From NCBI GenBank assembly GCA_050084515.1, contig CM114271.1, positions 17,422,001 to 17,486,000 on the forward strand: 64,000 nucleotides of DNA, read 5' to 3'. The stretch's first letter is position 1. Every line of letters starts with the position of its first letter. The notes under the pieces were generated by a model. The model was not told the origin of the DNA. It was given only the letters and a program-made list of their open reading frames with translations, and ran no database searches. The position numbers and the translations under genes were made by a program. Of the stretch, positions 4,904-41,500 are shown piece by piece. The DNA comes from Blasia pusilla. Taxonomy: Eukaryota.

Positions 4904-5522
4904 TGTCATATCTTAGTAGTCGATAGGCCGAGATCTATCGTGGATAGGGCGTAGAAGCCAGCGGACTATCTTGAGTGTAACTTTGTCCCACGGTGTCGGA
5001 TGAGGTTGAGGATATGTCCATTGTGTCAGGAACGTTGTTTCTGACAACTTTCATGTTGAGGTCTTTTACAGCCGGGTGACTTGTTGACCAGGTCACCCGC
5101 CCCTGGCAACCTGTGCGCGCAAGTTACCAAGGGGAGTGCTTTTTTTACGGGAAGAGCCTTTTGGCTCCTCCCCAACCCTATATAAGAGAGGAAGATGGCT
5201 TTCCTAAGCCATCTTTCTCATGTTGGGCCGTTGGAGCACCTCCCTTGTATGTGTGTGAGATAGGACTAGGGTGCTAGCGTCCGGATTCCTTGATAGCACA
5301 GGGTGGACGAGGCTCGATATGCTGATATAGATTGAGGAGTGGAGTTTTAGGCCGGGTGTGTCGTTTTTACTACTCTTTATTTTTGTTGTGTGATCTCCAT
5401 GTATATGTATGAGTTGATTTTTGTACATGTGTGGATCGACCCGTGTGTGGGGAAGATCGGTATTGTGTGGTGTAGATATGACGAGCGATGTATGTTGTGT
5501 AGCGATATGTATGCGCATGACA
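4904..5522 (+). mobile_element. Solo LTR (619 bp) of the DNMT/PHD Ty3-gypsy lineage
   Basis: TGTCA...TGACA termini, 4-bp TSD ACCT (4900-4903 / 5523-5526) and a TATA-like CCTATATAAG near 5177. A highly similar inverted copy lies at 17330-17949, and the 3' end resembles the LTR end at 17054. Confidence 0.92.
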
Positions 5523-7556: not shown

Positions 7557-10369
7557 TGAGGATGGAGACTTTGATTAATAAAAACACATATACATCACTC
7601 TTGTATTCCCGAATTTCTAGTTGATTTCCCATTACTATATTTTCCTTAGACAATATTTTCCTTGCTAGAGTTTTTGATTTAAATACATCCTTGAAAATCA
7701 CACTTGAGTTTCATCTAAACTCAAGTTACTCGACTTTTCTTTCCCATTCTCCATATTTTTTTCTCAACGCATTCAATTATATTCAATTTCCTTATCTTTG
7801 AAATAATGTATATTATCATGGGAGAATGCACTCTTTATTTTTCAATAGCTCTCCTTTTAATATTTGGCCTTTTTAGCGAAATAGGATCTTGACATAAGGC
7901 CATAAGTAAATTGGGATTACTCAAGTTCAGGATCTAGTTTAATATCAACCAATATTAATCATGGGTAATTCAAATTACCCATCATTGCATCGCTAGAGTA
8001 TCTACTAGTCTCTTTCATAATAAAGATTAGTCTCTTTGATAACAAAGACTAGTGTATAGTCCATGCAATGCACCGGAGTGAAAGAACTAACCATCTCACA
8101 CAAATTCAATTTGTTTTTACTTTTTACATATTCTGTGGAAAATATTTTCTTGTTGCCCAGTTTCCAATCAAAGAAACACATGTTTGCAAATAAAAAAGCA
8201 CTCTCCAATAATAATATAGATTTCCATCACTATGCAAAGAATTCATACGCATGTAGGAAATACCATAATAATAAAATATGAAATATATACAATTATTGGA
8301 GACATGCGTCTTAGTTCCAAACTGGGTTTCTGTGACACGTGACAAAATGGACCAATCGGATTGCGCCAAATGTTGATGATTGAGAATTCAAAATTCAACT
8401 TCAAAACTACCATCTTGGGGTCATAATTCGTAGATTTTTTCCAAATGTCAGATGTTGGAGCATCTGCCTTAGCCGCTGCTACCGTGCCGCTTTAAGAAAA
8501 GTATTAGGGAAAGATTAGGGTTTAAGTGATTTTAAGGTACTTAAGTTTGAATCACTACTTCAAGTATTATATTGTTTGCAAGAGGGCGTGGGAAACTAAG
8601 TAGAGTATCACTTCTACGAGTATTATCAGCAGAATATCCCAGAAGTGAGTGCTTCCTTTAATATGTTTCCTTTCAAGCATTTCCACTTTCAAGCATTTTC
8701 CTCTTTCAAGCATTGCCTCTTTCAAAAAACTTCTTTCAAAAAACATGCCATTCAGACATTTTTCGAGATTCTCAAATATTTGCTCTCAGAAGTAGAGCTA
8801 CTACTATTGTATCCACATTGCTAACACTGAGATTCTCATATATACATCCTATGGTGCGAAATGTTTCCTTTAAGCTCCAGAGCTACTGTTACACTGTATC
8901 AAGAGTAATTATTTTGAATCATTTCTGGGCAATAATACCACTTTCTAATAGGCGTTTGATTTTTGTATATTGCAAAAGGTCTACACATGATCGAAGAGGT
9001 ATAGCAAGCGGCCTCATTGGCGCATGCGGTACGCAGCCCCAACATCATTCCAACTTCTCTGCTGATTGTCTTCGAGCTTCCTCATTGTAGTTTCTCATTG
9101 CTTCTATTGTCATTCACCATCTTCATCTTTCTTATGGAGAAAGACCTGCAAGACAAACATCTCCATGTTATTAACGAACCCTTTTGGAAATATGCGAAAT
9201 TTCAAACAAGCGAGAAGGTGAAACATGGCTTGCAGGATGACAGCAATGAAGTCTACTCAAGGGAAAGGGAAGAAAGCCACTCACCAGATAACGTCCAGAG
9301 AGCACTTTGGAGTTAAAGATGTAGACACATCACCTTCAGATCACTTTGGTTGGTCTAAATCAACACAACATGAGAATGAGCACTTTTCTTGTTCTCCAAA
9401 TTTGGCCAAGGCGCATACGTCTCCAAGTCCAAAAAGACGACAATTACCGGTCAGTCTCGTGAGCGAAAAGAAAAATCTAAGGACAATGCGAGTCCTTCAT
9501 GGGGTCAAAGAATAAGCACTTTTGATCACAAGGGAGGCTTTGGAGATGCGAAGCGAGATTCTCTATCTGATCAATCAACACCACAATACAAACCCGAGGA
9601 TGCACAGTCCCTTGAGTGTGAACCACGACACATACCACCTCATAGTGGATCACCAGAGTATGAACAACGTAGGAGTAGATACACAACCACGAAACCAATA
9701 GAGTCCCCTAAAGAAGGTTTCACCAAGTCATGTAAACTTCCAGACATTGGTGAGAACACTTTTGCAAAAAAGAAGAGACAAACCCATAAATGAACTCGGG
9801 TTTTACTAAAGATCAAGATGTTAATTTGAGATCCCACTTTGAGTGAATAAGTAAATGGAGTAAACTCCTCTCTACTCTCGCACTATTTATTGCTATTCCG
9901 AGAGTAGAGATCTCACATGAATAGAGAGGGTCTACAAGGTTGGTTGATCTAATCAATATGCTTAGGCCGTTCCCTGCATTGTCTGAACAAAAATCAACGT
10001 CATAACATTAAAGCAAGCAAGCAGAGTAGAAAGATGCAATAGCAACTTGCCTTCTCATCAAATCGAGTAAATGTCCGTGTTGAGATGAGCCAAGTAGCAA
10101 GTAGCTATATAGGTTCGACTAGCAAAAGTAGCAAGTGAAGGGAGCGGAGGTGAACCAAGAGTAGGGCTACAAGAGCGAATTCATTAGAAAAGACATTGGG
10201 AGTGGAGGTGCAGTAGCAGAGCGTCAAATACAGCAATGGCATTCCGGCTAGGAGCAAAGTCATAACCAAGAGTAGGGCGTTTAGGCAGCAAGGTAGAGCT
10301 AAAATAGATTGTAAAATCCGCACTACCACATGTAATAGAAAATCATGTAAGGCCCAAAAGGCCTTCTCT

Positions 10370-11060
10370 ACCTATTCGCCGGTGAACGAGTATGCAAAGC
10401 AACAACAAAAATAGCAGCAAGTAGCAGCAGAGGAGCTGAAACAGCAACGCATGAGCGGCAGCAAGGTAGAGAAGGAGCTGTTGAAGTAAACCCGATTGCG
10501 GCAGCAAGGTGGAGTGCAACCCCTCAACCCAAAATGGGGGAAGAGAAAAGTGGAGGTGGAGCAGGTCCGTGCTCCCACCTAATCCCACCAAGAAAAACAT
10601 AGGACAGCCTTATGCAAGATACGATACGATCGCGACAACAATGTGGAGCGGAGGAGCCGATGCACCAGCGACGAGAGCAGAGCAAGGTTGAGTGCATCAC
10701 CTAGGTAAGCAATAAGAGCAGCAGCAAGATGGAGTGGATCGGAGCAGCGCGTTGAAGCCAAAACGGGGGAAGAGAAAAGTAGAGGCGGAGGAGGTCCGCG
10801 CTGCCACCTACTCCCACCAAATGAGACCCAAATTACTCCCCCTCTCTGATCGAGCCCGCAAGAAAGACATTGATTGGGGCATGAATGTGGAGCGGAGGAG
10901 CTGAAGTAGCAACACAATCGCGGGAGCAAGGTAGGATGGAGGAGCTGAACTAGCAACGACAGCGGCAGCAGGGATCAGAGCGGACAAGCCAAAATGCGGG
11001 ATGAAAAAAATGGAGGTGCAGCAGCTCCTCGCTGCCACCTACTCCCACCAAACAAGACCC
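10370..11060. repeat. GC-rich degenerate tandem array, ~230-bp unit x3
   Basis: GGGGAAGAGAAAAGTrGAGGyGGAG..GGTCCG.GCT.CCACCTA.TCCCACCA-type block at ~10537, ~10766 and ~10998. Confidence 0.8.
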
Positions 11061-11538
11061 GTTAGGCCTCCACTCCCTAGTCACGACTGAAAAAAGGCCT
11101 AGGCCCCGGCCCTCGATCTCCCATCTCCCCACCCCCTTGCACAGCGCCGCCCTATTGTCCGAAGCCCTAGCCTTACTCCTTTCGCGCTAGCCGTCGATGG
11201 ACTCCAACGATGGAGATCTCATCCATAAATGAGCGGCCAAGATGCAAAGATGCGGCTAGAGATCAACGGCTAGGATTAGCTTCTCCATAAAATGTCCTTT
11301 CCCCAAACAAAATTTGCCCAAAAGATGGGGTTTTGGGGAAAATTTCTAACTTTTCTCTTTCCTCTTTTCAATCCCCATTTTGAGTTTTCAAAATTTATTT
11401 CTTTCTTCCTTTTTTTAATTGAATTACTTCTTTTCTTTTAATCTTCCATACTTCATTCTATACCATAGAAAAAAAATTCGGATATACTTATAGTGGCAAT
11501 TTTTTTTTAACTATTATTGCGCATGTGTGTTTTGTAGA

Positions 11539-12375
11539 TGACAAACATTGATGAAATAGCAATGCGCGTGGAGAATAGGCTGCTTTGCGACATCATGAAT
11601 CTACCTTAGACACCAAGACATGCAGAATTACAACATGCTCCAACATCTTCGACGTATGTTACATGGTCTTAATTTACCTTTTCTCTACTACTTTTGCATG
11701 TGTTTTGTATAGAAATTATGGTACGTAATAATTATTTTGTTCACTTCACACTCAACACACTTCCTATTCCATCAAATCCAACGCATGTTTCCGACTTTAG
11801 AAAACTGCTACGTGTAGAGGTGCAAAGGAGAAATCGTCTTATTCCTGTAGAAAATATGGTGCAACAACAAGAAATACAAAATCGAGAGTTCATTCAAACA
11901 TCTCCAACATGAGTTGGTTCCGTAATACATATCTCTAATTTTTCCACTATTATGTACATTGAATTAATGCTTTTAATGAAGTTTTTTCATCTTTTTTTGT
12001 GATTGTATATGTTGTAGATTTCCTATTCCACGGAACCCTCTATTATGTACATGTATTCAATGTTTTTAATCAAGTCTTCTTCACCTTTTTTGCATGATTA
12101 TATATGTTCTAGACTTCCTATTCCATCAAATCCTACACATGTACGTGATTTTTGAAAGGTGTTGTGTGGGGAGGCACAAAAAAGAAAACAGGCTATTGGT
12201 GTAGAGAAATTGGTGGAACAAAGAGAAATACAAGCTCAAGAAATATCTCCAACGTAAGTTGCTTCCTTGATTTAATTCCTTTTATACTTTCTAATGGTGC
12301 TAGATTTAATCTATTAAGAAGTCTCATTCAACTTTTCTCCATGATTAAATATTCTCCTGACTTCCTATTCCATTA
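11539..12375 (+). pseudogene. Tandemly repeated small exons (LPIPSNPTHV...SPT), probably from the Helitron 5' coding region
   Basis: Units begin (A)C/TTTCCTATTCCA at ~11760, 12019, 12114 and 12361. Two translate LPIPSNPTHVxDF...EIQ...SPT and end at donor-like AC|GTAAGT (12253) or the mutated AC|ATGAGT (11909). Confidence 0.55.
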
Positions 12376-12691
12376 CTCGTGATGATATACCACCGTTGGC
12401 AGTGGCCAGTAGAGGGCAGCATTGCCTACATTGGTGAGTTTTCCGCCATCTCATGCTTTTTGTCAGGGAGGACCAGGCATGATATGGGATGAGCAGGTAG
12501 GTACACTCGTGGAGCCCAACACCGACGAGCGAGAGCGAGCTATGGGGTTCTCTACAGGTACGACGGCGGTGGCTATGATGGCAGAGCCATCCCGAAGAAA
12601 GGTATTGGGTCAGGCTATAGACCTGAATTGTCTTACTTGGGTGTTCACTCTTGGTTTGGCTAAGCACAGACGGTGCGAGAGGCATCTGTGA
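12376..12691 (+). pseudogene. C-terminal fragment of a DNMT3-like C5 cytosine methyltransferase within the retrotransposon
   Basis: EPNTDERERAMGFSTGTTAVAMMAEPSRRKVLGQAIDLN matches the C5-MTase motif IX-X pattern (E-R-x-x-G-F ... T ... R-x-x-x-L-G), as in DNMT3 [26 protein letters not shown]. Motifs I-VIII are absent because of the truncation. Confidence 0.75.
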
Positions 12692-13079
12692 CATTATGTC
12701 CACTTTGCAGCTCATTGTCTACCGGGACGGGTGAGACACTAGTTGGGGGCGCGATGGTGATGGAGAGGCATCCATGGACTTCATGGGACATGTCACGAGA
12801 GCATAGAGAGATGGGAGTTCATTTCGTTGATGCAGGACATAGTGGAGTGCCTAGAGAGTTGGTGTCTGAGTTGGGAGCGCATGTTGTTGCTCCAGAGGTT
12901 GCTAGTTAGCAACCACCACCCTCCTCTTCTCTAGAGATCACGAGAGAGACTTGGGAGCCGATGATTGGTCCTAGATTGACAAGAGCGGAGAGGAGACGAG
13001 TGTTGTAGTTCTTGTGGAGATTTAGGGACTGTTTTGCATACAGTATGCACGACTCGGGTACGCTGAAGGGTCCATGTAT

Positions 13080-15790
13080 TCGGATCGAGTTAGATAGTGA
13101 TACTCCTATCTTTTGACGACCCTACACGTATTTCGACATGGAGCGAGCCTTGATTCAGAGTAGGAGTCGAGACTTGGCTGACGCTGGACTGGTGGAGAGA
13201 TGGCTTGGAGAGTATGCATTTTCCATAGTTGTGCCGGTGAAGAAGGACATGCATGGCCAGTGGACCGATAGGCGGATATGTGGGGATTATCGTCCTATCA
13301 ATCGGCATACGAAAGCCAATCGCTATGATATGCCTACTCCCAAGGAGATCTTTGATGCGGTGGGGCATGCAAGGATCTTCAGTTGTTTGGATCTCCGTGC
13401 TGGCTATCATCAATTGCCCATCCGAGTGGAGGACATGGAGAAGACAACATTTTGGGGGATAGATCCTTTCGGGAAGGATTTTTTATATCAGTGGCGGTTC
13501 TTACCATTTGGGTGAAGAATGCCCCTGCGGGTTTTCAGCGAGTTATGGATAGGATTTTGGCTAGTTTGGATTATGCAAGATGTTACATCAATGACATGTC
13601 ATCTTCAATGCCATGGTTGAGGAGCATAAGAGCCATATGGAGGAGGTGTTTCAACGATTGCAGTTACATGGGCTAAAGTTATATCCAGGCAAGTGCAGGT
13701 TCTTCCATGACCAGATCGAGTACCTTTGACACACCATTTATCCAAGGGGCATTGGGGTTCAGCAGACAAAGGTGGAGGACATAGTACGCATTCCCCGCCC
13801 TACAGATGTGAGTCAATTTTGAGCTTTCATGGGATTGGCGAACTACTACCGACGGTACGTGAAGGGCTTTAGTGCGATTGCAAACCCACTGACTTTGCTG
13901 ACTAGGTTGAACCAGGAGTGGTTTTGGGGAGATGATCAAAAGCGAACATTTCATGAGCTCAAGGATAGGTTGATGTCCTCACCCATTTTGAGGAGACCTA
14001 TGCGTGGTTGTCCGTTCCAGTTACATACGGACTGGAGTATGTTGGAGTTAGGAGTGGTGCTCACTTAGAGAGATGATGAGGGGAAGGAGTTCGTAGTGGC
14101 GTATGTGAGCCGCTTAAACAACATTGCAAAGGCAAAGAACAATTCCTATGAGGGGGAGTGCTTAGCTGTAGTATGGGTAGTGGCCCATTTCAGATATTGT
14201 TTGTTCGAGAAGCCTTTCACGCTCATCATTGATCATCAGCCACTCAGATGGCTGATGGAGTATGACAAGCTTACAGGAAATCTTGCCATATGGTCACTCA
14301 TGTTGCAGGAGTACAATTTTCAGGCTGTCCATGGCCCGGGACATCTGAACCAGGATGCGGACGGGCTAAGCCATAACCCATGCACGAGCCAAAGCAATGC
14401 GACTGGAGCACGGTGGTATGGTGAGAGTGATGAGGAGATGGTGTCGGGCTGGCAAAAATGTGCCTATTTGTGTCTATTGGCTATGTTAGGTCAGCATGAG
14501 GCATCCATTCCATGAGGGAGGTTGGATGGTGAGTCCTCAGATCCAGATGCTAGTGAGGAGTCGACATGGACTAGAGATATCCACGATGATAAGATGGTCT
14601 TGGAGTACCTACACACTGGTGTCTTAGCGAGCACGGTGGATGCTAAAGAGCGAGATCGAGTCCTACAGCGAGCCAAGAGGTTCAAGTGAGAGGGGACGCA
14701 GGTGCTTCGAGTTTGGGAGGATGGACGAGTGCGAATGGTGCCGCATCCTTCGCAGCGAGCACGAGTTGTGAGACATGCTCACAAGAAGTTAGGGCATGTC
14801 GGAGTCAAGCGTACGTATAGCTTGATTCAGATTCAGTATTGGTGGCATGATATGTAGACTGATGTTCTAGTTTGTAGCTAGATGCATTGTATGTGATAGG
14901 GTGCGGGCATTGTTCAATGTCCGACACCACACTTGTATCCCTTATCCATCATGGGGTTAGGGTATCGTTGGAGTTTAGACTTGGCGGGGCCTTTACCATT
15001 GACGGGACGCCATAGTCGGTACATGTTGGTCATAGTGGAGCACTTCTCCAAGTGGACTGAGTTGGTAGCATTGCCGGATAGGTCGAGTGAGGGAGCGGCT
15101 TATGCATTTCTTGATAGAGTGCTTAGTCACTTTGGCGCATCAGCAGACGTATTGACGGACGAGGGTACCGAGTTTAAGGGTGACTTTCACACCTTGTGTG
15201 ATCAGGCACTGATAGATCATTGTACGACTTCTTGAGATCATCCAGAGGCAGATGGTTTGGCAGAGAGTGTTGTGCAGACGGTGAAGAGAGGATTGCGCAA
15301 GTATGGACTGCAGAGAGGAAACTTGGGAGATTGGGACCTACAGTTGCCGTGGTTGGCGATGGATTGCCGCTTCAGTCGGAAGGCATCCTTGGCATCATTT
15401 TCACCCTATTTCTTGTTCTATGGGAGAGAGCCAGAGCTACCGTTGTCGATTCAACGAGATGTGGTTGAGGTACTTGACCTCGACGATCCATACGTATGGA
15501 TGCGAGCATGTTCTCAGCGGGCTAAGCTCTTTGAGAGAGTCATGCCTATGGCGTTTGAGAACCAGGCTTTCACTCACCATCGCGATACTCTGAGGTACGC
15601 GACTATGCGTGGAGGAGGCTATTGACCAGGGATTCGGAGATTCCATCCTAGCGATTATGTCTACCTACAACAGACAGCGCCGACGACATTGGACGTGACG
15701 GCGCGACGTACTATTCTGTGAGTATGAGAGATTTTACCTTCAAGAGTCCTTGTTTTAGAGGGTCGTGATAGTACCGTTTGGAAAAATCAT
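13080..15790 (+). pseudogene. Ty3/gypsy pol (RT, RNase H, integrase), frameshifted and with stops
   Basis: RT: RICGDYRPIN, CLDLRAGYHQ, FLPFG-KNAPA, CYIND. RNase H: FQLHTDWS, SYEGECLAVVW, IDHQPLRWL. Integrase: H-x4-H...CIVC, WSLDLAGP, VLTDEGTEF, HPEADGLAE. Confidence 0.95.
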
Positions 15791-16015
15791 ATGCGTAACT
15801 GTGCGCCATGTCATCTTCTGAACATGGATGGGAGGATTGATCCGAGCTTGGTAGTTGTTCATGCAGGCTTGAGATGCATGTTGTGTGGGTCTGCCAGAGG
15901 CGCAACCACGATGCTAGTTTGTGATGAGTGTTCTCAAGGATGGCATATGTTGTGTTTGGCGCCGCCCCTTGACTTGGTTTCTCATGGACGTTGGCTTTGT
16001 CCCAGATGTACATAG
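15791..16015 (+). pseudogene. PHD finger at integrase C-terminus
   Basis: CMLC...MLVCDECSQGWHMLCLAPPL...GRWLCPRC is an intact C4-H-C3 PHD with the conserved W. Confidence 0.92.
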
Positions 16016-16191
16016 GTGTGATAGGTAGATACAAGATTACTCTTGATGTTATGGATTGCAGGAAGGTGACTAACGATGGGGCGACATAGTACCTGACCTC
16101 CTGATCTTAGCATCGAAAAGGTGCATAGCATTTAGACTTGTTTTGTAGGCTATATGGAGTTAGAGGGACGTAACCACCAACTAGGGGGACG

Positions 16192-16309
16192 ATTGGGATT
16201 GTCCAGTAGTTCATGTGTAGAGATGTTAGGATTCATAGCTAGATGGATCTTAGACATGTGTGTGCATGACAGCCGATGTATGTTGACAACGATGTATATT
16301 CGTACGACA
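16192..16309 (+). repeat. 118-bp extra copy of the LTR 3' end placed immediately upstream of the 3' LTR
   Basis: 16192-16309 versus 16937-17054: same length, 9 mismatches by eye, no indels. Preceded by AACCACCAACTAGGGGGA (16172-16189) and followed by AC and the LTR start TATCATGG (16312). Confidence 0.95.
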
Positions 16310-16311
16310 AC

Positions 16312-17054
16312 TATCATGGTAGATGAGGCGTAGGGTGAGATAGTATCGAGGCCTTAGAGGGGTCTTGTACTTCCCTATTTTGAGAGATCATATGTGACCT
16401 GCTCTTAGGAAGTGATCTACTAGTGTAGGTCACCCTTCCCTTTATGAGGAGTGGCAACCTTGGAGAGGTTGACCTTCCTAGCCATGTGTGGCTCCACTTG
16501 GACCTATAGGGTTATGAGTTAGTTGGTAGTTGGTCTCATGAGGGGACCACATGTTTTGTTGTTAGGGAGCTAGTATGGATGTACTACAAGTTGATAGTGA
16601 CGTACTAGGAGGGAGGTGACATGTGTGTACAGGTCACCCATAGAGATGCCCAGGTGGGTATACCTCGAATGAGTCTCATTTGGAGCTCATCTCCTTAGGA
16701 TTGCAGACCCTTGGTAGGATCCGTGATACAATACGACGTGTATGTATTGAGCTTGGATTCTCTCTTGAAGAGTGGGCTAGGAATGATCAATAAGGAGATC
16801 ACACATTTTGGGAATCCTTGTGTATACTTTCTCTTATTGTCACACGAGTGCGTATCAGAATCATGAGTATGGCTGTTGGATGAAGTACGGTCGATTGAAT
16901 ATTTCATTAGAGTTTACAGTTCGTATTCAACTTTATATTGGGATTGTCCAGTCGTTCATGTGTAGAAATATTAGGATTCATAGCTAGATGGATCTTAGAC
17001 ATGTGTGTGCATGACAACTGATGTATGTTGGCATCGATGTGTATTCGCACGACA
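16312..17054 (+). mobile_element. 3' LTR of the DNMT/PHD gypsy element
   Basis: TATCAT...ACGACA termini (decayed TGTCA...TGACA). The terminal ~35 nt resemble the solo-LTR end at 5486-5522. Confidence 0.85.
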
Positions 17055-20000
17055 TCGACTTCAAACACCAATTGGAGCTGAAGATGATAATCAAGTACTT
17101 CGATTTGGTCGACTTCCTCAAGAATATATGGTTGACATTTATGCCACTATCGAGATGCAGCGTTTATGTTTGATTGCGTGAATCAAAATGAGTTAAGAGT
17201 TGAATTATATCAAGGTGTAAAGGATGCCATACATCAACATGATAGTGATAGCACAAAATTTGGGAGGCGTATTGTATTAACCTCTTCTTTATTGGAGGTC
17301 CATGTCATATGCATCAACTATATCAAGACTATCGTGCGCATAAATATCGCTACACAACATACATCGCTGGTCTCATCTACACTACACAACACCGATCTTT
17401 CCCACACAAGTACAAAAATCAACTCATACATATACATGGAGATCACACAACAAAAATAAAGAGTAGTAAAAATGGCACACCCGGCCTAAGACTCCACTCC
17501 TCAATCTACATCGGCATATCGAGCCTCGTCCACCCTATGCTATCAAGGAATCCGGACGCTAGCACCCTAGTCCTATCTCACACACATACAAGGGAGGTGC
17601 TCCAACGGCCCAACATGAGAAAGATGGCTTAGGAAAGCCATCTTCCTCTCTTATACAGGGTTGGGAAGAGCCAAAAGGCTCTTCCCATAAAAATAGCCCT
17701 CCCCGTAAAAATAGCCATCCCCTTCGTAACCTGCGCGCACAGGTTACCAGGGGCGGGTGACTTGGTCAACAAGTCACCCAACTGTAAAAGACCTCAACAT
17801 GAAAGTTGTCAGAAACGACGTTCCTGACATAATGGACCTATCCTCAACCACATCCGACACTGTGGGACAAAGTTACACTCAAGATAGTCCGCTGGCTCCT
17901 ACGCCCTATCCACGATAGATCTCGGCCTATCGGCTACTCAGATGTGACAAGACGCAATGGCCATCGTGAGACACTTGGGAAACTCCGATTACTTTTTAAC
18001 CATGACATGCAACCCTAAGTGGGAGGAGATTACAACAACATTGTTACCTGGTCAAACTACGGCAGACCGACCGGATTTAGTTGTAAGAGTTTTTCAAAAG
18101 AAGAAGAGGGAGTTATTACAACTTATCATCAAGAAGCATATATTAGGCCGAGTTGTTGGATGCATTCATGTTGTGGAATTCCAAAAGAGAGGTCTTCCAC
18201 ATGCCCATATTTTGATAATTCTGGCTCATGGGGATAAACCACAAACTACTTATGATTATGGTACTATAATATCAGCTTTTTTTTATACATAAATATATCT
18301 TTGCGTGGTTGATCTTCTCTATTGCTTTTTTTTTCTAGATTAAAATATAAAAAATTTATATACTTACTTATTCTTTGCAATATCTCTTTTTTTAGGGTGG
18401 ATGATGGGAAGAAGGTCATAAAGCGTGAACACTCTCTCGAAAATCAATGGGTGGTGCCCTACAATCCTCTAGTGTGTACATTATTTGACTGTCACATTAA
18501 TTTGGAGATCACAAACAATATTTTGGCTGTTAAATATCTCTACAAATATGTACATAAGGGATCTGATGTTGTATCATTTAAGGAGTCCAAAGAAGGAAAT
18601 AATTCTACCAACATAGAGACAATTGATGAGACATCATTGTATCTTGATGCAAGGTAAGCATTTCCTGACTTCATTGTTTTATTTTATTTCCATGTCCTTC
18701 TACTCATTGATAGTTTCAACATTTCATGTATGTAACCATCATTTTCTCATCCCATATATAGATATATATTTTCTTCAGAGGCGTTTTGGAGACTTTTCAA
18801 ATTCAATCTTCATGTAGAACATCCGAGTATTATGAGATTGGTTGTTCATTTATCGGAGGCACACATAGTTTACTTCAACGATAATGATGCTCCAAAAAAT
18901 ATTCTGCAAAATAACAGAGAGACAACCCTGGCACAATGGTTTGAAACAAATTCGCTAGATCCCATTGCTTGAAAGTATTTGTATCTTGAATTTCCTTCCT
19001 ACTATCGTTGGAGTAATAAGAGATGGTTTTGCAGGGTACCAAAAAAAACTATTGCGATCTTCCTCTTGGTCGCTTATACCTTACCCATCTAGGTAAGAAG
19101 TTCTTGCAACCTCATCTTACTTTCATATGCTATTTCCTACCTTACTTAATATCTCAAATAATTCTATCCACACATTCAATAGAGGAATTATAACCTTTAA
19201 CCTATCTTGGACTTCCATGTAGGTGAAGGAGAACGCCATTGGTTGAGATTGCATCTTCATCATGTTCGAGGGGCAACTACATACGAATTTTTTAGAACAG
19301 TGGATGGAGTGTTGTACCCAACATTTAAGGACGTTGTCATTCAATTGGGACTTCTTGAGGATGATAGGGAAGCATTCTTTTGCTTAAAAGAAGCTAAAGA
19401 GATCCGTAAAGGCTCCTCACTTCGTGGACTCTTTGCCATCATTTTGGCTTATAACACACCTACTTGTCCTGCAATACTTTGGAGTCAATTTTTGGTTCAA
19501 CTCATTAAAGATCTTATATATGAATGACGTGAGGTAATTATTTTTCTTCTTTAATTTTAAGGTCTAAATGCTGATATTACCTTGGACTTATTACATGTTA
19601 TGCACATTCCATTGCAGAAAATTGGAATTGCTAATCTCCCCCCTGATGCTTCTATCATTAATCAGGCTTTATTGGAAGTGCATTATTATCTCCAAGATCA
19701 AGGAAAGTCCTTGTAAGATTTCCCAGACATGCCCCAAGCTAACTTTCAAATAATTCAATCACGCTCATATCTAGATGAAGAAAAGTTATTATATGATCAA
19801 GAATAACTACTTGAGCGCGTGGAATTATGAGAATCAAGTTTGAATGAAGGGCAACGTGCTATTTAGGATGCTATACATATTCAACTTCATGATATCTCTA
19901 CGGATGCTCCATCATGTGCCAAATGTTTTTTCATTGATGGCCCAGGAGGAAGAGGAAAGAAGTTCCTATATAATCTTCTTCTTGCAAGCGGTAGAAGAAG

Positions 20001-21298
20001 TGGAGGTATAGCTTTGGCTGTCGCATCATATGGGATAGCTGCCCTTTTATTAGATGGAGGACGCACTGCACATTCACGCTTCAAGATTCCTCTAACTCTT
20101 GATGAATCCTCTACTTCATCGTCATGCATTTGAGGCAGTGAATCGTACCTTACAAGATATTATGGGAGTTTTCTCTAATGACTTGAGGCATATACCATTT
20201 GGTGGAAACTCATAATTTTTGGTGGCAATTTTTGCCAAGTCCTATCCGTTGTACGTCATGGAGATTCCCCAAAAATTGTCCAAGCCACTTTAAAGAGATC
20301 AATTTTATGGCCTCATGTGAATGTCATGAAGTTAAGTACAAATATGAGAGTTCAAAGGTTGGAAGGTCATGAATGTGCTCACCAACAAGCTTTTGCTGAT
20401 TGGTTAGTGGAGGTGGGAGAGGATGATGTACCTTTGCGAAGTGACTTGGGAGATAATTTTATTCAATTGCCACATGATATGGTCTACCATAGTATTAAGA
20501 TAAGTGATCTTATTGATATTAGAATGGAAACGATCCTCAATCATTTCATGACATCAATTTTTTGGGAGATACAGCTATTTTGGCACCAAGAAATAGAGAT
20601 GTCGATGAGATAAATACAGAAGTCATGTCTCGATTCCACGGACAGGTAAAGATACAATACTATTCCGGTAAATATGTTTTGTGATTCTTATTAATGACTA
20701 TCTTCATTCCAATATCTAATATATGTATGTAAGTTATGTACAAGGATGTACTTACCTAAGTGTTGACTTCGTTCCAAATTAGAGGATGAGTCATATCTAT
20801 CCGACAAAATTCTTGAATACATGCTTACCTTACGGACTACCACCATATTCTTTGTCATTGAAAATAGGTGCACCGATCATGCTTCTACGAAACATGAATG
20901 GCTCGAGGGGACAAGCAAATGGTACGCGATTAGTCATTCGAGGATTTATGCAACATTTGATAGATGTTGAGATTATTACTGGAAAGAACATTGGAGATCT
21001 CGTTTTCATTCCGCGTATCCCATTGATCGCGTCTGACTCCCATTTACCTTTAGACCTACGTAGACGTCAGTCAATTCCCTATCCGTCGTCCTTTTGCCAT
21101 GACCATTAATAAATCACAAGGTCAAACCCTACATAAAGTTGGAATTTACTTGCCTACTCCTATTTTTTCTCATGGCACGTAGCATTGTTTAGAGTAGGAC
21201 ACATAAGTTCAATCCATGTTACACTTGGAAGTGAAGCACATTCAAGTAAAAAGGTGTATTGTACCCGCAATGTAGTTTACAAAGAAGTTCTAATTTAA
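17055..21298 (+). pseudogene. Helitron Rep-helicase (HUH endonuclease plus Pif1-like helicase), intron-containing, decayed
   Basis: Rep: YQD|AMAIVR...FLTMTCNPKW, VVEFQKRGLPHAHILI, KYLYKYVHKG. Helicase: FIDGPGGRGK, GGRTAHSRFKIPL, PFGG, LKIGAPIMLLRN...[32 protein letters not shown] introns at ~18655, 19093, 19534 and 20646. Confidence 0.95.
17330..17949 (-). mobile_element. Solo LTR inserted in the Helitron Rep coding sequence
   Basis: Inverted copy of 4904-5522 with 4-bp TSD AGAC (17326-17329 / 17950-17953). Removing it restores TAT CAA GAC GCA ATG GCC (YQDAMA). Confidence 0.95.
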
Positions 21299-31666: not shown

Positions 31667-33478
31667 GAGAAAAAAAAAAGATGCACTTCGATAGAAACGA
31701 GTGATGGAAAACCCATCGGAAGTACAAAAGAGTCAAAACGTGAAGGCCACAACAAGACCAGAAAAGGAAGAAGGGGGGATTCCCCCCCCTAACGACAAAA
31801 CTCACCAACAGCAGAGACAATATCAGCAACAACAAGAGAGCTATGACTACTACTAAGTGGGGCTCTAGCGCCGGTGTCTCCCACAGCCTGAGCCCGCCGC
31901 AAAAGCCCATTAGCCTGGGCACGCTGCAACGCTATGGAGACCCGCTGCCTACAATAGAGAATCGCAGTAGCTAATGGGACGACCCATTTCTCGAGTGGAG
32001 ATGATGGCGCGATCCGTGAACGAAGTCGAACCTCTCCCCCATAGCCCCATACATCTCTATGGCTAGGGGATGAAGATGTGCCCTCGTGAAGTCGATTGTA
32101 GATATGTATCTTCTTCACCGCCGCCGCCGCCGCTCTTGTAGCATTCGCCCTTGGGCCACCACTTGAGCTCGACCTTGCCCCCGCGTGAGAGGATCTGTGA
32201 CTACCATGTCCGCCACCACCACCTCAGCCTCTCGTGTCATGTAGAGATCAAGACGAATAAGGGAATCTGCATGGAGTAGTGCCTCTCTCTCGCACATGGC
32301 GACCACTCTCCCGAGCAATCATCGAACATGATATCCCGACCTTTGCATCGTGAGTGGCTATCCTCTCACCCCTAAAGACGGACAGCGTGCCAAATGCACA
32401 CCAAGTGAATCCAGGCTCGCGACACTCGCGGTGTGTCGAACCAACCACCGATGGTTGGGGAGGCCCAAGCGGAACCGCATCATCGCCGTGTGGTATAGGT
32501 AAGTGGTGCGACACGGAAAGCTGGAGAAGGGGGCGCCCTACCCATGAGCTGCCCCTTTCCGAGCAAGAGCGAATACGGGCCCTAACCTCCATGGGGATAT
32601 TCCCGTCAGACATAGTGCCTCTAAAAACTGCCTCAAAGTGGGCTTCCATCAAGGAAGATTGGAGCCCAGACTCACTGGAGGTAACTAAGGAGGAGAAAGT
32701 GGGGAGAACGGCTCTAGCCTCAACTCGAAGGGAATCTCTACAAGCTGTGAGTGAAGACTGAAGTGGGAAAGAGCCATCCTCAACCTGGGAGACGTAGTGT
32801 AGAAGGAGCGGTCTATCTCTAACCAAAAATCTGGAGCAAAGGAGGGGTGCCACTGTGGTCCAACTCCCTAAAAAAGCGGAGGGCGCCACTAACTCGGTCG
32901 AGAGAAGACCTACTCCACCAAAGGAAATCGGCCAAGAGGCCTGTCTACAAGCTAACTCCCCCATAGGGCACTCTAAGGAGCCGGGTCCTAGAAGATCCCC
33001 AAACACCTGCATGAGCTTCCTATCAAAGGATCTATATAGGGAAGAAAGGTGACTAGATGTCCACACCGTTCTAGTGAGGTAACAAGATCTATGAGCAAAA
33101 CAAGAAGAAAGAATGCCGAAGGCGACTTGAGGGTCACCAATCCTCGTAAGATCATCAACGTGGAGAAGATCCTCGGTTAGAGCCGCTGCCACGAAACTCG
33201 ATACAAAGTCCTGGCTCCTGAGCGAGACTCCCAAGACTCGAAGCCCTCCTACAGGTCGCAAGAAGCCGTCGGGTAAATGTAGATCATCACGTAGGCCTGA
33301 TGGAGACCAAGCTTTGCACTTCCCCACCTTCACCGCCAGGCCGACACGTGCCAACTGTGCTGAAAAGTGCTCGAATGCAGGGACAACCAGATCTCCAGGA
33401 CCAACAATATGAGTATCATCTGCCAGCGAAGGGAACATGCAACCCAGAAAAGCCTCCACCATAGATAATATGATAAAT
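31667..33478 (-). mobile_element. 5'-truncated non-LTR retrotransposon, CRE-like (RT + CCHC zinc finger + restriction-like endonuclease)
   Basis: RT: SLADDTHIVG, KCKAWSP, LRVLG. Then LDSLGVHLARC (second frame), GERIATHD, RLD...VADMVVTDP and RQRVSIALQRAQA. 13-bp TSD GATACCTTATTAA at 31654-31666 and 33479-33491. GC-rich island in AT-rich flanks. Confidence 0.85.
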
Positions 33479-36315
33479 GATACCTTATTAATATGATAAA
33501 AGAATCTATGTCGTGCTCTTGATCCACTAGAATCTCATATTTCAAACGTTACAACAAAAGATCTAGAAAATTCATATTTGAGAATAGTGGTATCCCAAAA
33601 TAGCTATATAAAATGGTCACCGAAATCATTTCGTTTCTATCAAATCAAACGAAATGGGATATTTTGATTATTTGATGAGCTACTTTGCATAAAAAAAAAT
33701 TCCATATTTACAAAAGTAAATAAATTTGGAGACATAAACGCGAAATTATTTCAATTGGGCTATCATTCTTTTGGCACGGCAGTCTAAGCTATTAAAAGTG
33801 CCGTATCATAAAAAGTTAAAAATAGTGTACGACTATCATGCATTTAATATTTCTTCCAATTTAAAATTTTCCGTTTCCAAGGTCGAATTTTTTTCTTCAC
33901 CTCGTGAGTCGGAATTTTGTATGAATTCTTTCATATTTGACAAGTGAGAAAAACAAGTTTATTTATTTAGCTTTTTGCTTTAGCTCGTAGTGTATAATAA
34001 TAGGACCTATGGTGAAAATTCTTACCAATAGGGTTAACAATAGGGTTTTGCATCGCCCATAGTCATTTTTAACTTGTAACGTTCATATGGAGCGCAAGTC
34101 GAATATTCTTTCTCTTGGGTTTGCCATAGCCAAATTTAAATTGCACTCGAGGTTCACCTTCTTCCCAATTTTCCTTCCGGGCATGACTATTTGCTCATCC
34201 CTCGTGTAAATGATATGGGATCTTCTTTGAGCACCAGCATGATGCTTTAGACGTGCTTAGCACATCTTTGAATGAGTGAGACTTTCTTGAGAAAAGGTTT
34301 GTGGATGGACTCTCAATAATTTTTCATGTAGTGTCACTAAAGATTTATTATAGATCCATCAAAGGACATCTCCAACTTCATGGCCGAAGAGCGCTTATTT
34401 CGATTGGAGGATTTCTTTTTTCAGCACCTTCGATTTTTAAGATTAAGTGTCTAGCTCTAACCCGGCTTATTTCTTGCTTACTAAGCCAGCTATTAAGATG
34501 AAATTGCAAGTTGCGCTATTTCAAAATAAACATTCTTTTCATTTTCACTATTTATGTGCCCTCGTCAATCTCTTAACGATTTTTTCAATCCCTTCACTCC
34601 CTACCATCTTCGGTGTCCACTTAGTTTTGCTCTTCCATCATCACACTTCCTTACATCCACTTTCTGTTTGGTCTTCAGCCCTCACATTTCCATGCATATC
34701 CTAAGATTTCACTCTTCGTTTAAGAGAGAGCATGTAAGATGAAGTGCTTATCTTAGGACGATGTGAGATGCAATGCTTAGCTTGAGATTAATTAAGTTGC
34801 ATGCTTGTAAGATGTAATGCTCAGCTTAAGATTCTGTGTTTTCCTTCTTCTTCTTTTACTCACGGATGAGGACAAAACTGCCCCATGTAGAAATTTACTC
34901 TATGGAAATTTATTTATTATTTCGTATTCCTCATCAAAACGTAAGCTTGGGAGGTTGTCAAAGCTACTAGAGCTTGGGTGACCCACTTCACCAAATTTTT
35001 TAAAAGATGGTTTTCCCCGAATTGAGAGCTTTTCCAGCTCATACCCACACCCTTTCACACGTGATATATGCCATTGGAAAGCCTAAATTTTTTTTGTCAA
35101 GATATGTCACTTTTTCTTCCATTGTCTTTCGTACTTGAGTTTTTTAAAGATGATTAACTTAAGCCAAAGCACTTGTACGTGGCCATAGTTGATATTGCTT
35201 TTCTCAAGTTGGATGCTGGACTTTGCTACGTTTGCTTACTTTTAACTTGGACGGCCAATGAGCCAACCCCTCATATATGGTACACACTTTGTCATGGGAA
35301 AAAATACACATGGCGGAGTTTTAGCGATTTTGGATAATCAAAAGGATGCCTGCAAAACAGGGTGGAGTGTTTCTGAACTCGAAGTGAGTGTGGAGGTTTG
35401 AATGGTGTGGATGCAAAAGACATGAATATGTTATTGTAGTTCTAAGATTTTCTTATAAACTCTTAGATAAGGCTACGTGAAGAAGCCAATAAAACTGCTT
35501 TCACTCATTTGGAGGAAATGGGATACTAACGAAGGTGGCCCATTTCCCTATCCTTGGAATCTCCAAAGGTGTATTTGAGTCTCCAAACTAGGGCATATTC
35601 TAGGCCTTAAACTAACAACAAAGCATTTTAGTAGTCAAATGGAAATGTTAAAAAACCAAACCAAAGAGTTCAGATATTATGTAACAACACAAATTATTAA
35701 GAAAGTTGGTTTAATAGCATGTGCTATATAGTTATTACATTTGAAAATTTCACTGAAGTAATTTTCTTGGAAAAAGTGAAATGAATTTTTTTTTCTAGTT
35801 TCCACTCATAAAATTTGACCAAACATTAAAACATAGGTAATTTTAATAATAAAATTAAATAATTATTTTCACATTTGGAAAAAAGATAAGTGGCCTAAAT
35901 AGATTTTTTATATTCCTTGTTTCCGAACACAAATAATCATGTAGATCTCCCTTTGTTCTTGCAAATGTACTTTGAAAAAGTGGAGCAAAAAAGTGGAGCA
36001 AGCTACGCGCAAGCTATAGGGTGCTTTATTCTTCTCCATCATACTTTATAGTGTTTCTCTTCCTCCAAAGATTGGGCATATGTCGAGGTACGTGTAGGGT
36101 TCTTCAAGAAATCACGAGCAATCTTATCACTAGGTTATTAACTTATCAAGCCATATGTGCACAAGCTGAAGTTTCAAGTAAAAAATTTGCACATCAAAGG
36201 TGGTGAATGTCTATAACAAGGTTCAAAGTTTGCATGTCGTATTTGAAATTGGGCTAAAATTTCCACCCGAAGAATTTATATGGATATGTTTAGGTAAAAT
36301 CTGCGTCTCAAGTAA

Positions 36316-38542: not shown

Positions 38543-41500
38543 ATGGCAAATCTAAATGCGTTTGAGGACTTTTTCCGTCGAGCGGATTTGGACAAGGATG
38601 GCAGGATTAGCGGGGCCGAGGCAGTCGGATTTTTCCAGGGAGCCAACTTACCACAAGTTACGTTGGCAAAGGTGTGGAACATCCTCCTTAATTTTTTAAG
38701 CATTAGAAACAATATGCGTCATGTAAAACTCACGTCTCATAAGTCAGCATCGGAGGCGCGCACTTGACTGACCTGCACTCACTAAGCGACGACACAAGTG
38801 AATGGAGGGAGTGGTAGGGCGTGAGGATGCATGGGAGATATAGCGCGAACCATATAAGGTGGATTAAGGATAATACTACGAATTTCTATGGGACTGCCTG
38901 ACTTTCTTGTAAGGAGTTGTGGTAGAAGTGCGAGAAACACCTAGTCGTATTCGCAGGTTGACGTGCTCGTGCTGAACTGTGGGATTTTTTATGGCTCGCA
39001 GATATGGCAGATTGCGGATCAAGGACAAAATGGATTTCTTTCCAAGCCCCAGTTTTTCAATGCTTTGAAGCTTGTGACAGTCGCTCAGTCGGGAAGAGAC
39101 CTCACACCTGAAATTGTACGAACAGCCTTGACTGGACCCGTTGCTGCACAGATCCCCCCACCTCGAATAGTGACTCCCGGGCCTCCACCTTCCAGCTATG
39201 GGGCGCCATCAGTGTCTCCTCAGGTACAAACTGGTTTCTCGAATCAATTCGCATCTTCTACAGCAGCTCCTCAAAGTCGATGGTCTTCTCAACCCTCTGC
39301 TTTGCCTGGGAATGCACCGATAGCGCCTCCTGTGATTCCCAGACCTGGTTCAGCATCGGGACAGCGACCTTCGACGGGGTTTGGCCAAGATGCGTGGCCT
39401 TCTGTTAAGTCGACAGGTCCTTCCCCTTCAGTCCATGGCCCATCGCAAGCTCCTGCAAGTGCTGCTGCATCGGTGCCAGGTTTTCAGGTTGGTCAAAGCT
39501 TTGCAGCTTCCTCACAGGGGAAGATTAAGGAGGACGCATTCGGTGGGCTAGGACTCGAAACAGGTAAATTCTGGGCTGAGGATGGCTATGGTGGCGACGG
39601 AGCGTTCCGAGCAGAACCTGTGGCAACCAAGGCACTGGCACCAATTGGTATTCCCTCAAGAAATGGAAGTAAGGAATCCCAAACAGCTTTTGCAACCACC
39701 CGTCCGTCTGTGACACCTCTACCAGCGGCCTCTGGACCGGGATTTACTGCTCCTTCCGCAAGCTTAGGTATGGGTGGGCCTTGGCCCCGAATGACCGAGT
39801 CTGATGCACAACGTTATACACGAGTGTTTGCCGAGGTGGACACGGACAGAGATGGCAAGATCACAGGCGAGCAGGCACGGGATCTTTTCTTGAGTTGGGG
39901 ACTTCCCAGAGGTAACTCTCCATGTTATCCCAGACAACATGTCGCTTGGTGAAGCTCGGAAGGGGCAATTCCGATGAGAATTTAATGTGTTTGGTCTGTA
40001 GATGCAGTGTCTGTGATATGCTTACTGACCACTGAGCCCCTGATGGTTGAGTAAGAGCCGATGAGCTTTACATTTAACTGGCTTAAGCCAAAGTCATGGT
40101 GGGTATCTTGACTCCTCTGCACAACACATCTTCATTAGGCTCATTCGAGTTACACCAGTCAAGTCTTCATAGTACTGATAAAAACACTGTTTCCTCAGAG
40201 GTTTTGAAGCAGGTGTGGGACCTATCAGATCAAGACGGTGACAGTATGTTGTCTCTTAGAGAGTTTTGTACTGCTCTCTACCTGATGGAGCGGTTTCGGG
40301 AGGGGAGACCTTTACCGCCTGTACTCCCTACAGGCTTCCACTTTGACGACCGTCAATCAGAAATATGGCCCTCTGCAGTTGCCTCACAAACCGAGCAAGG
40401 ACGTATGCCTGTTTCACAGCATTCTGCAGGGTACAATGTTCCTAGCTGGCAACAGAATCCAGGTACAAAGATGCGACCCTGCTTTGGATAGCATCAGTAT
40501 TAGACTATGAACGTCAGATGTAACCTCTTGCTGTGCTGGAGTACTTCAACCTTTGTGTGTTAAATTCAAGGAGTAAAACATGACATGAATGGACTCATAG
40601 TATCACAACAAAATTTCTGGGTGATTACCTGATATGATCAATGCCTCATTTCAAGAATTGTTAGTGGTGTTCTAAGCTGACTGTAGAAACATTTTTTGAT
40701 GGGATTTAACATCTGATGGATCTCTTGAACCCAGGAGCACTTCATCCCCCTGGTTCAGGATCCATTGGTCTTCCACGGCAGTATATGTCAACTGGATCAA
40801 TTCCATCACAAGTTCCAAGTGCACGAGGCATTGATCTAGATGCAGGTCAGCCTGTAGTATACAAATCTAAGGCTCCTGTATTGGATATGCATCTCGTGAA
40901 TCAGCTCAACAGGGATGAACAGAATACTCTGAAGGCAAAGCATAAAGATGCTGAAGAAGCAGATAAGAAGGTAAGTTCTTGATGTCTACTTGAGCAAAGT
41001 AAAAGTGGATTGAATTTATGGTGACATAGTTTATGTGTAGTTCAAAGAGTTGTGTCCAGTCCTCAGAAAAAGATATGATAAGACCTCCTCCATCTAGTGC
41101 CCTGTCTTTAACCTATTATACTGAGAAGGAACAAAGATAATAATCTGTCCTCCGGAGCTCACTCAAGAAAATGTGTGAGTTTTACACACTGGTTCTTTAA
41201 ACACACAAAATTCAATCTAAATGATGCCACTACTGGGAATGATGTTGAACCATTAATCTGATTCTTCACTACTTAGCCGTGGACTTCCCTCACATGTGTT
41301 GAGTCTGTTGGAATTTGTTTTCTTTTCATGTGGAGGGAATCCTTGGGTAAGATCTTTGGTTAGAGCAGAACATCCCAAGGATGCATCTTTCTCTTAAGAA
41401 GGCTAGGGAAAACATTGTGAAAAAAATTGTCGCGGTTGACACTTCAGACACATGTACAAGAAACATTTATCTGATCGATGGTTCAGAGCTGCCACTGAAA

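Follow-up and report, generated by a model that had tools for sequence, protein, structure and literature searches.

A decayed retrotransposon in the liverwort Blasia pusilla carrying the remnant of a DNMT3-like cytosine methyltransferase

Introduction

The capture of DNA methyltransferases (DNMTs) by retroelements is recurrent (PMC5890265; bioRxiv 10.64898/2026.05.21.726589). DNMT-carrying retrotransposons are described from dinoflagellates and one charophyte alga, with an unclear role, and in the study concerned the Gypsy-Dnmt3 kind is reported only from Klebsormidium nitens (PMC5890265). This element, KnitGypsy-Dnmt3, has conserved key residues and a Ka/Ks below 0.2, and the legend of Fig. 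4c describes its repeats as arranged as in DIRS (PMC5890265). A 2026 preprint lists ‘streptophytes (Gypsy-DNMT3)’ among earlier cases, and adds the EpiLTRs, which carry DNMT4-like enzymes, in Cymbomonas and Euglena (bioRxiv 10.64898/2026.05.21.726589). This work concerns 64,000 nt of the liverwort Blasia pusilla (GCA_050084515.1, CM114271.1:17,422,001-17,486,000), hereafter the window, to which all positions refer. Its segment 12376-17054 (+) is very probably a dead copy of a liverwort Ty3/gypsy-type family encoding a DNMT3-like cytosine-5 methyltransferase, of which a short peptide at the 5' end would be the remnant.

The closest described system is KnitGypsy-Dnmt3, which likewise combines a gypsy polyprotein with a non-rearranged Dnmt3, conserved key residues and purifying selection (PMC5890265). 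Its repeats are DIRS-like, as are the split repeats described below, a comparison that extends to the wording of the Fig. 4c legend only; its host is a charophyte alga, whereas the family described here resides in liverworts, which are land plants. A probably leaky stop between methyltransferase and reverse transcriptase (RT), a PHD finger on the integrase and the exact order of the split repeats characterise the liverwort family, and go unmentioned in the main text on the Klebsormidium element, from which the words ‘Marchantia’, ‘PHD’, ‘chlorophyte’ and ‘readthrough’ are absent (PMC5890265). EpiLTRs, SymbioDIRS-DNMT3 and SymbioLINE-DNMT are also retroelements with a cytosine methyltransferase (bioRxiv 10.64898/2026.05.21.726589; PMC5890265). 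However, the EpiLTR enzymes group with DNMT4 and are encoded as a 3' extension of pol (bioRxiv 10.64898/2026.05.21.726589), and the dinoflagellate elements are DIRS or LINE (long interspersed nuclear element) types, unlike the gypsy-type family here. A literature search covering sources other than subscription journals and supplements found no publication on DNMT-bearing retroelements in liverworts or other land plants, and the identifiers of the Marchantia genes likewise led to none.

Results

The open frame at 12413-12691 (+), in frame +2, encodes a 92-aa peptide containing ERERAMGFSTGTTAVAMMAEPSRRKVLGQAIDLN, with the translation RAALPTL...EPNTDERERAMGFSTGTT...RRKVLGQAIDLNCLTWVF, in which motifs IX (ERERAMGF) and X (LGQAID) are both present. 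A search with phmmer against 1.84 billion representative sequences returned 497 proteins at E<=1e-3, 104 of them at E<=1e-10, with the top relative at 2.6e-30 and 62% identity; on these scores, the similarity of the peptide to its relatives is far beyond chance. Because the peptide has no Pfam or PDB match of its own to a methyltransferase, this identity rests on homologues that retain the whole domain. Among ten long relatives scanned, the Pfam methyltransferase family PF00145 was found above the Pfam cut-off in six and below it in two, and was absent from two; RT/RNase H or integrase domains were present in all of the long relatives except P0032. Ten mid-size relatives gave PF00145 in five, the remainder being fragments that lack the N-terminal half. 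In the PF00145-carrying relatives, the peptide aligns from the target-recognition region to motif X, making it the last quarter of their methyltransferase domain, and the remnant is 67% identical to residues 548-638 of P0158 from Calypogeia fissa and 64% identical to residues 1114-1208 of P0340 from Marchantia polymorpha. A first-pass annotation, made from the letters of this DNA, had proposed a methyltransferase C-terminus resembling motifs IX-X about 400 nt upstream of RT on the same strand. The alignments of PF00145-carrying homologues to this region (6/10 long, 5/10 mid-size) bear this out, as do the positions, since the peptide ends at 12691, RT homology starts at about 12967 and the Pfam RVT_1 match falls in the ORF at 13117-13515. 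The profile search that the annotation had recommended was informative in part: no family was recovered with the peptide alone, whereas a profile of whole-domain relatives matched DNMT3A at 3.3e-22.

Full members of the family read LFGGI(S/G) at motif I, GWPCQG at IV, Y(I/L)xENV at VI, GSRAHRxRxWWTNL at VIII, EPNADERERAMGF at IX and LLGQAMDLNCLTW at X. This order in the family alignment, from I through IV, VI, VIII and IX to X, is the non-rearranged one of DNMT3, not that of DRM. All six motifs, including the PCQ of motif IV and the ENV of motif VI, are found in the Calypogeia and Marchantia proteins P0158 and P0340, both with LFGGIS at motif I, and P0340 retains LFGG, PCQ (as GWPCQG), ENV, AHRxR, ERERAMGF and LGQA; ILENV and AHRxR are the family's forms of motifs VI and VIII. 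The annotation had held that its proposal would fail if longer copies lacked FxGxG, PC and ENV motifs upstream of the peptide; longer copies do have FxGxG, PCQ and ENV, as in part does a second copy within the window.

The label ‘DNMT3-like’ given by the annotation agrees with three rankings. When the member P0020 was compared with the PDB, 29/29 matches were to DNMT3A/B/C, its C-terminal stretch aligning to residues 213-272 of DNMT3B; motifs IX-X of a relative also align to residues 245-284 of DNMT3A. A profile built from 16 members matched 50 PDB sequences at E<=1e-3, of which the first 29 were DNMT3A/B/C (3.3e-22 to 4.4e-17), followed by a ‘DNA methyltransferase’ entry, 4onj, presumably tobacco DRM (2.2e-10), M.HhaI (8e-9) and DRM2 (about 7e-8). 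An AlphaFold model of the domain (pLDDT 74, pTM 0.76) was used in a fold search, in which DNMT3 chains occupied every row listed among the top 50, with a best E of 1.8e-11 and TM scores of 0.5-0.6. The PDB rankings and the fold search together support DNMT3 as the nearest solved family to what would be the element's methyltransferase. Host DNMT3 proteins (animal DNMT3A/B/C and bryophyte DNMT3) thus provide the nearest solved sequences and folds, and share the non-rearranged motif order. However, the element's domain lacks PWWP and ADD, sits between a protease and RT, has LGQA at motif X, and in the fold alignments shares about 20-24% identity with DNMT3 chains.

The relatives fall into two domain orders. 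Type A has RT, RNase H, DNMT, integrase and PHD finger (P0086, P0097, P0149 and P0375 of Monoraphidium), and type B has gag with a CCHC motif, protease, DNMT, RT, RNase H, integrase and PHD finger (P0132/P0152 and P0360). Gag with CCHC and an aspartic protease were seen in P0132/P0152, P0360 and the metagenome locus L005, and in intact relatives of the window copy the order is gag (CCHC), protease and DNMT, then a stop, then RT, RNase H, integrase and PHD finger. Eighty metagenome loci were retrieved with the DNMT domain profile, comprising 51 of type B, 11 of type A and 18 that were partial or unclear. The window copy is collinear with type B and with the relatives P0152, P0360, P0340 and P0450: residues 1194-1280 of P0360 correspond to 12416-12676, 1345-1547 to 12967-13605, and 1551-2345 to 13598-16012. 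Riccia sorocarpa P0163 and Marchantia P0349 continue from the DNMT C-terminus into RT. The attribution of the methyltransferase to the retroelement, rather than to its surroundings, is upheld by the recurrence of DNMT-RT-RNase H-integrase-PHD in 51/80 metagenome loci and in single open reading frame (ORF) proteins.

A tree of 90 DNMT domains (IQ-TREE short search, SH-aLRT support only, midpoint root) separates a clade of 18 rows from one of 72 rows at a support of 99*. In the smaller clade, every row with a determined domain order is of type B; the larger contains the type-A rows and all named chlorophytes. Both methyltransferase pieces in the window join the Marchantia and Calypogeia domains with an SH-aLRT of 94, nested in a set of eight supported at 97*. 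The type-A relatives named from the chlorophytes Monoraphidium, Haematococcus, Hariotina and Cymbomonas are gene models with a homologous DNMT, integrase and C-terminal PHD finger, but their DNMT lies between RNase H and integrase, whereas that of the liverwort family precedes RT, and they fall on the opposite side of the 99* split. Further domains were noted in two proteins: the type-A protein P0375 of Monoraphidium neglectum (2527 aa) has a Tudor-like PTM_DIR17_Tudor match after its PHD finger, below the Pfam cut-off, and P0069 has a G-patch after DNMT. A 1974-aa RT-RNase H-DNMT-integrase-PHD polyprotein, P0381, bears the NCBI label ‘Minisyncoccia bacterium’ as a metagenome-assembled genome, and is probably from a eukaryotic contig binned with a bacterium.

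Conservation of the enzyme was tallied over 170 near-full DNMT domains (102 type A, 42 type B and 26 with no order assigned). In all three groups, the commonest motif forms retain the catalytic Cys, EN(V/T) and RxR, the commonest forms of motif IV in the family being GW(P/E)CQ(G/D). The domain is open in a single frame without stops in 17/80 metagenome loci. Between L004 and L005, the least saturated pair, dN was 0.033 and dS 0.258, a ratio of 0.126; each compared with L006 gave ratios of about 0.10-0.12 at a dS of about 1.4-1.5. These ratios indicate that the DNMT domain is under purifying selection between copies.

The window copy itself spans about 12376-17054 (+). The annotation had given its extent as 12376-16015, of which the 5' limit stands and the 3' end is displaced to about 17054. 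Its parts are as follows.

12386-12688 (+): DNMT3-like remnant in frame 2, comprising the end of the target-recognition region and motifs IX (ERERAMGF) and X (LGQAID), with a premature TAG at 12410
12673-12906 (+): ORF1 C-terminal tail after the methyltransferase, in frame 1, following a frameshift at about 12673-12688
12907-12915 (+): natural ORF1 stop TAG CAA CCA (UAG-CAR-YYA), a candidate leaky stop, with RT in the same frame
12910-13605 (+): linker and N-terminal half of RT, in frame 1, with premature stops at 13006 and 13114
13598-14515 (+): rest of RT and RNase H, in frame 2, with premature stops at 13727, 13820, 14066 and 14513
14516-15727 (+): integrase (H2C2 zinc-binding part, DDE core and C-terminal region), in frame 2, with nine premature stops
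15875-16015 (+): PHD finger at the integrase C-terminus, then the natural stop TAG at 16013, with P0360 aligned to residue 2345/2358
16183-16189 (+): polypurine tract AGGGGGA inside the conserved block AACCACCAACTAGGGGG, directly before B1; the block also precedes B1 in L013 and L055
16192-16309 (+): split direct repeat B1, 118 nt
16310-16936 (+): repeat A2, 627 nt, starting ..TATCATGG (compare A of related loci, TGTCATGA); its partner A1 was lost with the 5' end
16937-17054 (+): split direct repeat B2, 92% identical to B1 and ending ...CGCACGACA, the 3' end of the element

Domain matches follow the order RT, RNase H, integrase, as in Ty3/gypsy: RVT_1 in the ORF at 13117-13515 (+), RT_RNaseH at 14069-14515 (+, 1.3e-19), Integrase_H2C2 in 14516-14857 (1.7e-8, with the stop read as X), rve in 14900-15235 (5.3e-11), and PHD in the ORF at 15728-16015 (+, 1.6e-10). 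After the methyltransferase, relatives continue in what is frame 1 of the window through the ORF1 tail (P0158 residues 638-687, P0340 1204-1263 and P0450 1243-1318). Homology to the family starts at about 12386, with motifs I-VIII, protease and gag missing, and the copy carries about three frameshifts and 16 premature stops. Two of the frameshifts, at about 13500 and 13598, delimit a zone in which another stop is found at 13513, and the 2.4 kb from 13598 to 16012 run without a frameshift through 13 premature stops. The annotation's description of the copy as dead and truncated before the catalytic PC motif was accurate, the cut lying at about 12383-12386 with motifs I-VIII gone. By this decay, the window copy is an inert fossil, a dead, 5'-truncated Ty3/gypsy-type retrotransposon. 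At roughly 10/16 of the premature-stop positions, the commonest codons in relatives are those for R, Q or W; a deamination signature was considered for these stops but is not claimed, as several need two changes and the observed/expected CpG ratio of the copy (0.67) is not below that of the window (0.60). Next to the truncated 5' end, the sequence at 11400-12376 (+) is AT-rich, with a ‘GACTTCCTATTCCAT...’ unit recurring at intervals of about 250 nt; TRF run on 9000-12500, across the 5' junction, reported no tandem array.

The window holds a second copy of this family, more eroded than the first, at about 61823-63382 (-); it may extend beyond the end of the window.

62599-63382 (-): N-terminal half of the DNMT domain, with stops and frame changes
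62328-62444 (-): RNase H remnant
62140-62280 (-): integrase remnant
61823-61994 (-): polypurine tract and B repeat

It reads VRVLDLFRGISS... and has a degraded motif I (VLDLFRGISS, with LFRGIS having Arg for Gly), followed by GLQNPRLTMFYKMLRVL and a retained motif VI, YILENVPLLGDS; the stretch before motif VIII is broken, and RT, most of the integrase and the PHD finger are deleted. The catalytic Pro-Cys of motif IV is present in neither window copy, the first being truncated and the second disrupted in this region, and the ENV of motif VI and RxR of motif VIII are both missing from the first. As both copies lie within the same window, the genome held more than one insertion.

The natural stop between methyltransferase and RT is a shared feature of these elements. 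In the window, the ORF1 tail ends in frame 1 at the TAG at 12907, followed by CAA CCA, and the same frame runs into RT. UAG-CAR-YYA is the consensus of type I readthrough, and CARYYA also works with UGA and UAA (PMC3542737). P0450 ends exactly at the stop position, and the end of Marchantia P0340 is only a few residues away; among 168 proteins with motifs IX-X, 24 end 85-115 aa past motif X, this distance being 92 aa in five Marchantia models, 94 aa in Calypogeia and about 96 aa in the window. In 34/51 type-B loci, CAR-YYN comes directly after the first in-frame stop upstream of RT homology, the stop always lying 48-87 nt before the homology. The contexts are TAG CAACCC (16 loci), TAA CAACCC (12), TAG CAGTTA (2), TAG CAATCA (2), TAG CAACCA (1) and TAG CAACCT (1). 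The intact L005 has an ORF1 of 1369 aa (protease and DNA_methylase) and an ORF2 of 1047 aa (RVT_1, RNase H, integrase and PHD) in one frame with a single TAG between them, and L006 is the same except for one frameshift in ORF1. When 11 copies were aligned across the stop, TA and CA were the sole invariant columns, the flanks differing between subfamilies. The conserved ORF1 stop is therefore probably leaky, judging by its position and context. The window's TAG CAA CCA, and five related loci with TAG before CAGTTA, CAATCA or CAACCA, fit the tobamovirus-type leaky stop of type I (PMC3542737). In plant viruses this stop lies within the viral replicase, whereas here it lies between the methyltransferase and RT of a retrotransposon.

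The two identical long terminal repeats (LTRs) expected of Ty3/gypsy were not found. Self-comparison of the window revealed no LTR pair flanking the element, and the related loci L055 (1676-10805) and L064 (3705-12919) instead have the full pattern A1 - about 8.2 kb - B1 - A2 - B2. L013 (6513-7080) has the 3' part of this A1...B1-A2-B2 pattern, the window keeps B1-A2-B2, and the B repeats are homologous between the window and all three loci. A starts TGTCATG and B ends CGCACGACA, the two ends being near-inverted with TG...CA termini, and the B1-A2 junction equals ‘right end + 2 nt + left end’. Target duplications of 4 bp flank L055 (AAGG) and L064 (CATA), the flanks differing between the two loci. 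No tRNA-type primer-binding site (TGG...) was evident after A1 in L055 and L064 on inspection by eye only, and no terminal repeats were found within the contigs of the intact-looking L005 and L006. For Ngaro/PAT/VIPER elements, the same A1-B1-A2-B2 layout is described, in which the internal pair follows the coding region (PMC4157794). However, those elements use a tyrosine recombinase, while the element here has a DDE integrase, TG...CA ends and 4-bp target duplications.

The nearest solved PHD fingers to that at the integrase C-terminus are those of CHD4, KDM5/Lid, MLL3, ATXR5, PHF12, DPF3, PHF21A, UHRF1 and AIRE (5e-12 to about 1e-5). Most of these solved PHD fingers bind the histone H3 tail with unmethylated K4. 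Chromoviruses, which are Ty3/gypsy elements with a chromodomain on the integrase, likewise carry a chromatin reader at the C-terminal end of the integrase, where it plausibly serves in targeting; the module here is a PHD finger.

The annotation's view that this is a land-plant genome accords with a host gene for an EH-domain/EPS15-like protein, in several exons, at 38945-46392 (+). With 38945-39952 as the query, its five best matches were all liverworts, namely Marchantia paleacea (56%), M. polymorpha (53%), Riccia sorocarpa (51%), R. fluitans (50%) and Calypogeia fissa (49%), followed by lycophyte, gymnosperm and moss matches, which places the window in a liverwort distinct from these five species. 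Named relatives of the element also come from liverworts. P0158 of Calypogeia fissa is 714 aa long with all motifs, and others are P0163 of Riccia sorocarpa and P0004, P0340, P0349 and P0361 of Marchantia polymorpha. Clustering at >=90% identity places P0340 in a cluster of 18 members, the 15 listed being without exception M. polymorpha models, which lie on chromosomes 1, 2, 4, 5 and V; five members are 1278-1281 aa long. This pattern fits a young multicopy family in M. polymorpha. No moss, hornwort or vascular-plant relative appeared in the protein searches, although such proteomes are in the database, a negative that is weak given the word prefilter and transposon-masked annotations; nor was any Klebsormidium protein named in three protein searches and three cluster look-ups.

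Other repeats surround the element. Directly downstream, 17948-20613 (+) is a broken Helitron, with Helitron_like_N (3.3e-35) and PIF1 helicase pieces (5.8e-21 and 8.5e-16). A 570-nt repeat unrelated to the element occurs twice in inverted orientation at 88.6% identity, at 17332-17900 (+) and 4953-5520 (-). The 428-aa open frame at 32248-33534 (-) had no Pfam match at E<=1e-3, leaving its by-eye label as a non-LTR (LINE) RT unconfirmed, and a by-eye ‘Copia’ label at 60685-61203 was without Pfam support.

Discussion

By its domain content, motif order and repeats, the liverwort family belongs to the known Gypsy-DNMT3 kind, as a member from land plants. Several results nevertheless weigh against parts of the account developed here. 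Alone, the 92-aa peptide matched no Pfam family even at E<=10, and its PDB matches contained no methyltransferase, consisting only of chondroitin synthase at an E of about 0.7. The fold model is only moderate (pLDDT 74, TM about 0.5-0.6), and in motif IV, Glu replaces Pro (GWECQ, giving ECQ instead of PCQ) in 46/102 type-A and 7/42 type-B domains. Strict CAR-YYA follows the stop in only 5/51 type-B loci and the window, CAA-CCC being found instead in 28/51 loci, in 12 of them after TAA and not TAG. The split repeats are present in only 3/25 loci with >=500 nt past the PHD finger, all of one subfamily, B1-A2-B2 not being seen in the other 22/25 with sequence beyond the PHD finger. Finally, both window copies are wrecks; that Blasia pusilla hosts an active family is unproven.

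The peptide's lack of direct matches would be expected were its likeness to motifs IX-X a matter of chance and the peptide a decayed spacer upstream of RT, yet it has 104 homologues at E<=1e-10, including proteins with a full PF00145 to whose C-terminal part it aligns, and the probability left to coincidence is close to nil. The truncation inside the methyltransferase, and the absence of gag and protease upstream in the window, would also fit a fragment of a host DNMT3 or DRM pseudogene lying beside an unrelated gypsy insertion. This is very improbable, because the in-frame junction from DNMT tail through stop to RT recurs in 51/80 loci, P0360 and P0152 carry it in single ORFs, Riccia P0163 and Marchantia P0349 span it, and remnants of DNMT, RNase H and integrase follow one another likewise in the second window copy.

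What the domain does, and where it came from, leave more room for alternatives. A true DNMT3 relative might no longer be an enzyme, and might instead have a DNA-binding or structural role within the Gag-protease product; motif X, with LGQA instead of GN(A/S), and the frequency of ECQ at motif IV point this way. However, in each of the three groups the commonest motif forms still have the catalytic Cys, ENV and the RxR of motif VIII, the substitution ratio of about 0.1-0.13 indicates purifying selection, and conserved key residues with Ka/Ks below 0.2 are reported for the Klebsormidium elements (PMC5890265), making loss of activity unlikely. It is a minor though real possibility that the liverwort family captured its DNMT3 independently of KnitGypsy-Dnmt3, their likeness then being convergent: no Klebsormidium sequence emerged from any protein search, and such captures are recurrent among retroelements (PMC5890265; bioRxiv 10.64898/2026.05.21.726589). 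Conversely, both are gypsy-type with a non-rearranged Dnmt3 in the polyprotein and DIRS-type repeats, and the presence of the same DNMT clade in chlorophyte elements suggests an old family of the green lineage. The DIRS-like repeat arrangement is the main reason for regarding the liverwort family as probably of one lineage with the Klebsormidium element.

If the family works as its organisation suggests, most ribosomes would stop after the methyltransferase, yielding Gag-protease-DNMT in Gag-like amounts, and a minority would read through the leaky UAG to make RT-RNase H-integrase-PHD. The PHD finger may then tether the integrase to histone H3 tails. The methyltransferase may methylate the element's own new DNA or its insertion site, which is the preferred reading of its role, although its probability is judged to be somewhat under even. 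New copies would in that case be heterochromatic from the start, in chromatin favoured by the PHD-integrase. The whole combination, of an active or recent liverwort family (including Marchantia polymorpha) with Gag-like production of Gag-protease-DNMT3, RT-RNase H-integrase-PHD made through a leaky UAG, and Ngaro-like split-repeat DNA despite a DDE integrase, is proposed tentatively, as more doubtful than probable when all its parts are required together.

Because the enzyme is encoded before a probable leaky stop, it would be produced in larger amounts than RT and integrase, a constraint on models of its function. An integrase element with split direct repeats and target duplications is an oddity for models of retroelement replication. 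The family extends the known range of DNMT-carrying retrotransposons to land plants, with 18 near-identical Marchantia polymorpha models, among them some that lie on the male sex chromosome. As knock-outs, methylomes and reporter assays are routine in Marchantia, what a transposon gains from its own DNMT becomes testable. Were the combination proposed here true, the element would write 5-methylcytosine with its DNMT and read the matching chromatin with its PHD finger, following the logic of host DNMT3, in which an ADD reader is coupled to a methyltransferase, and would give a land plant a source of de novo methylation that has so far gone unrecognised.

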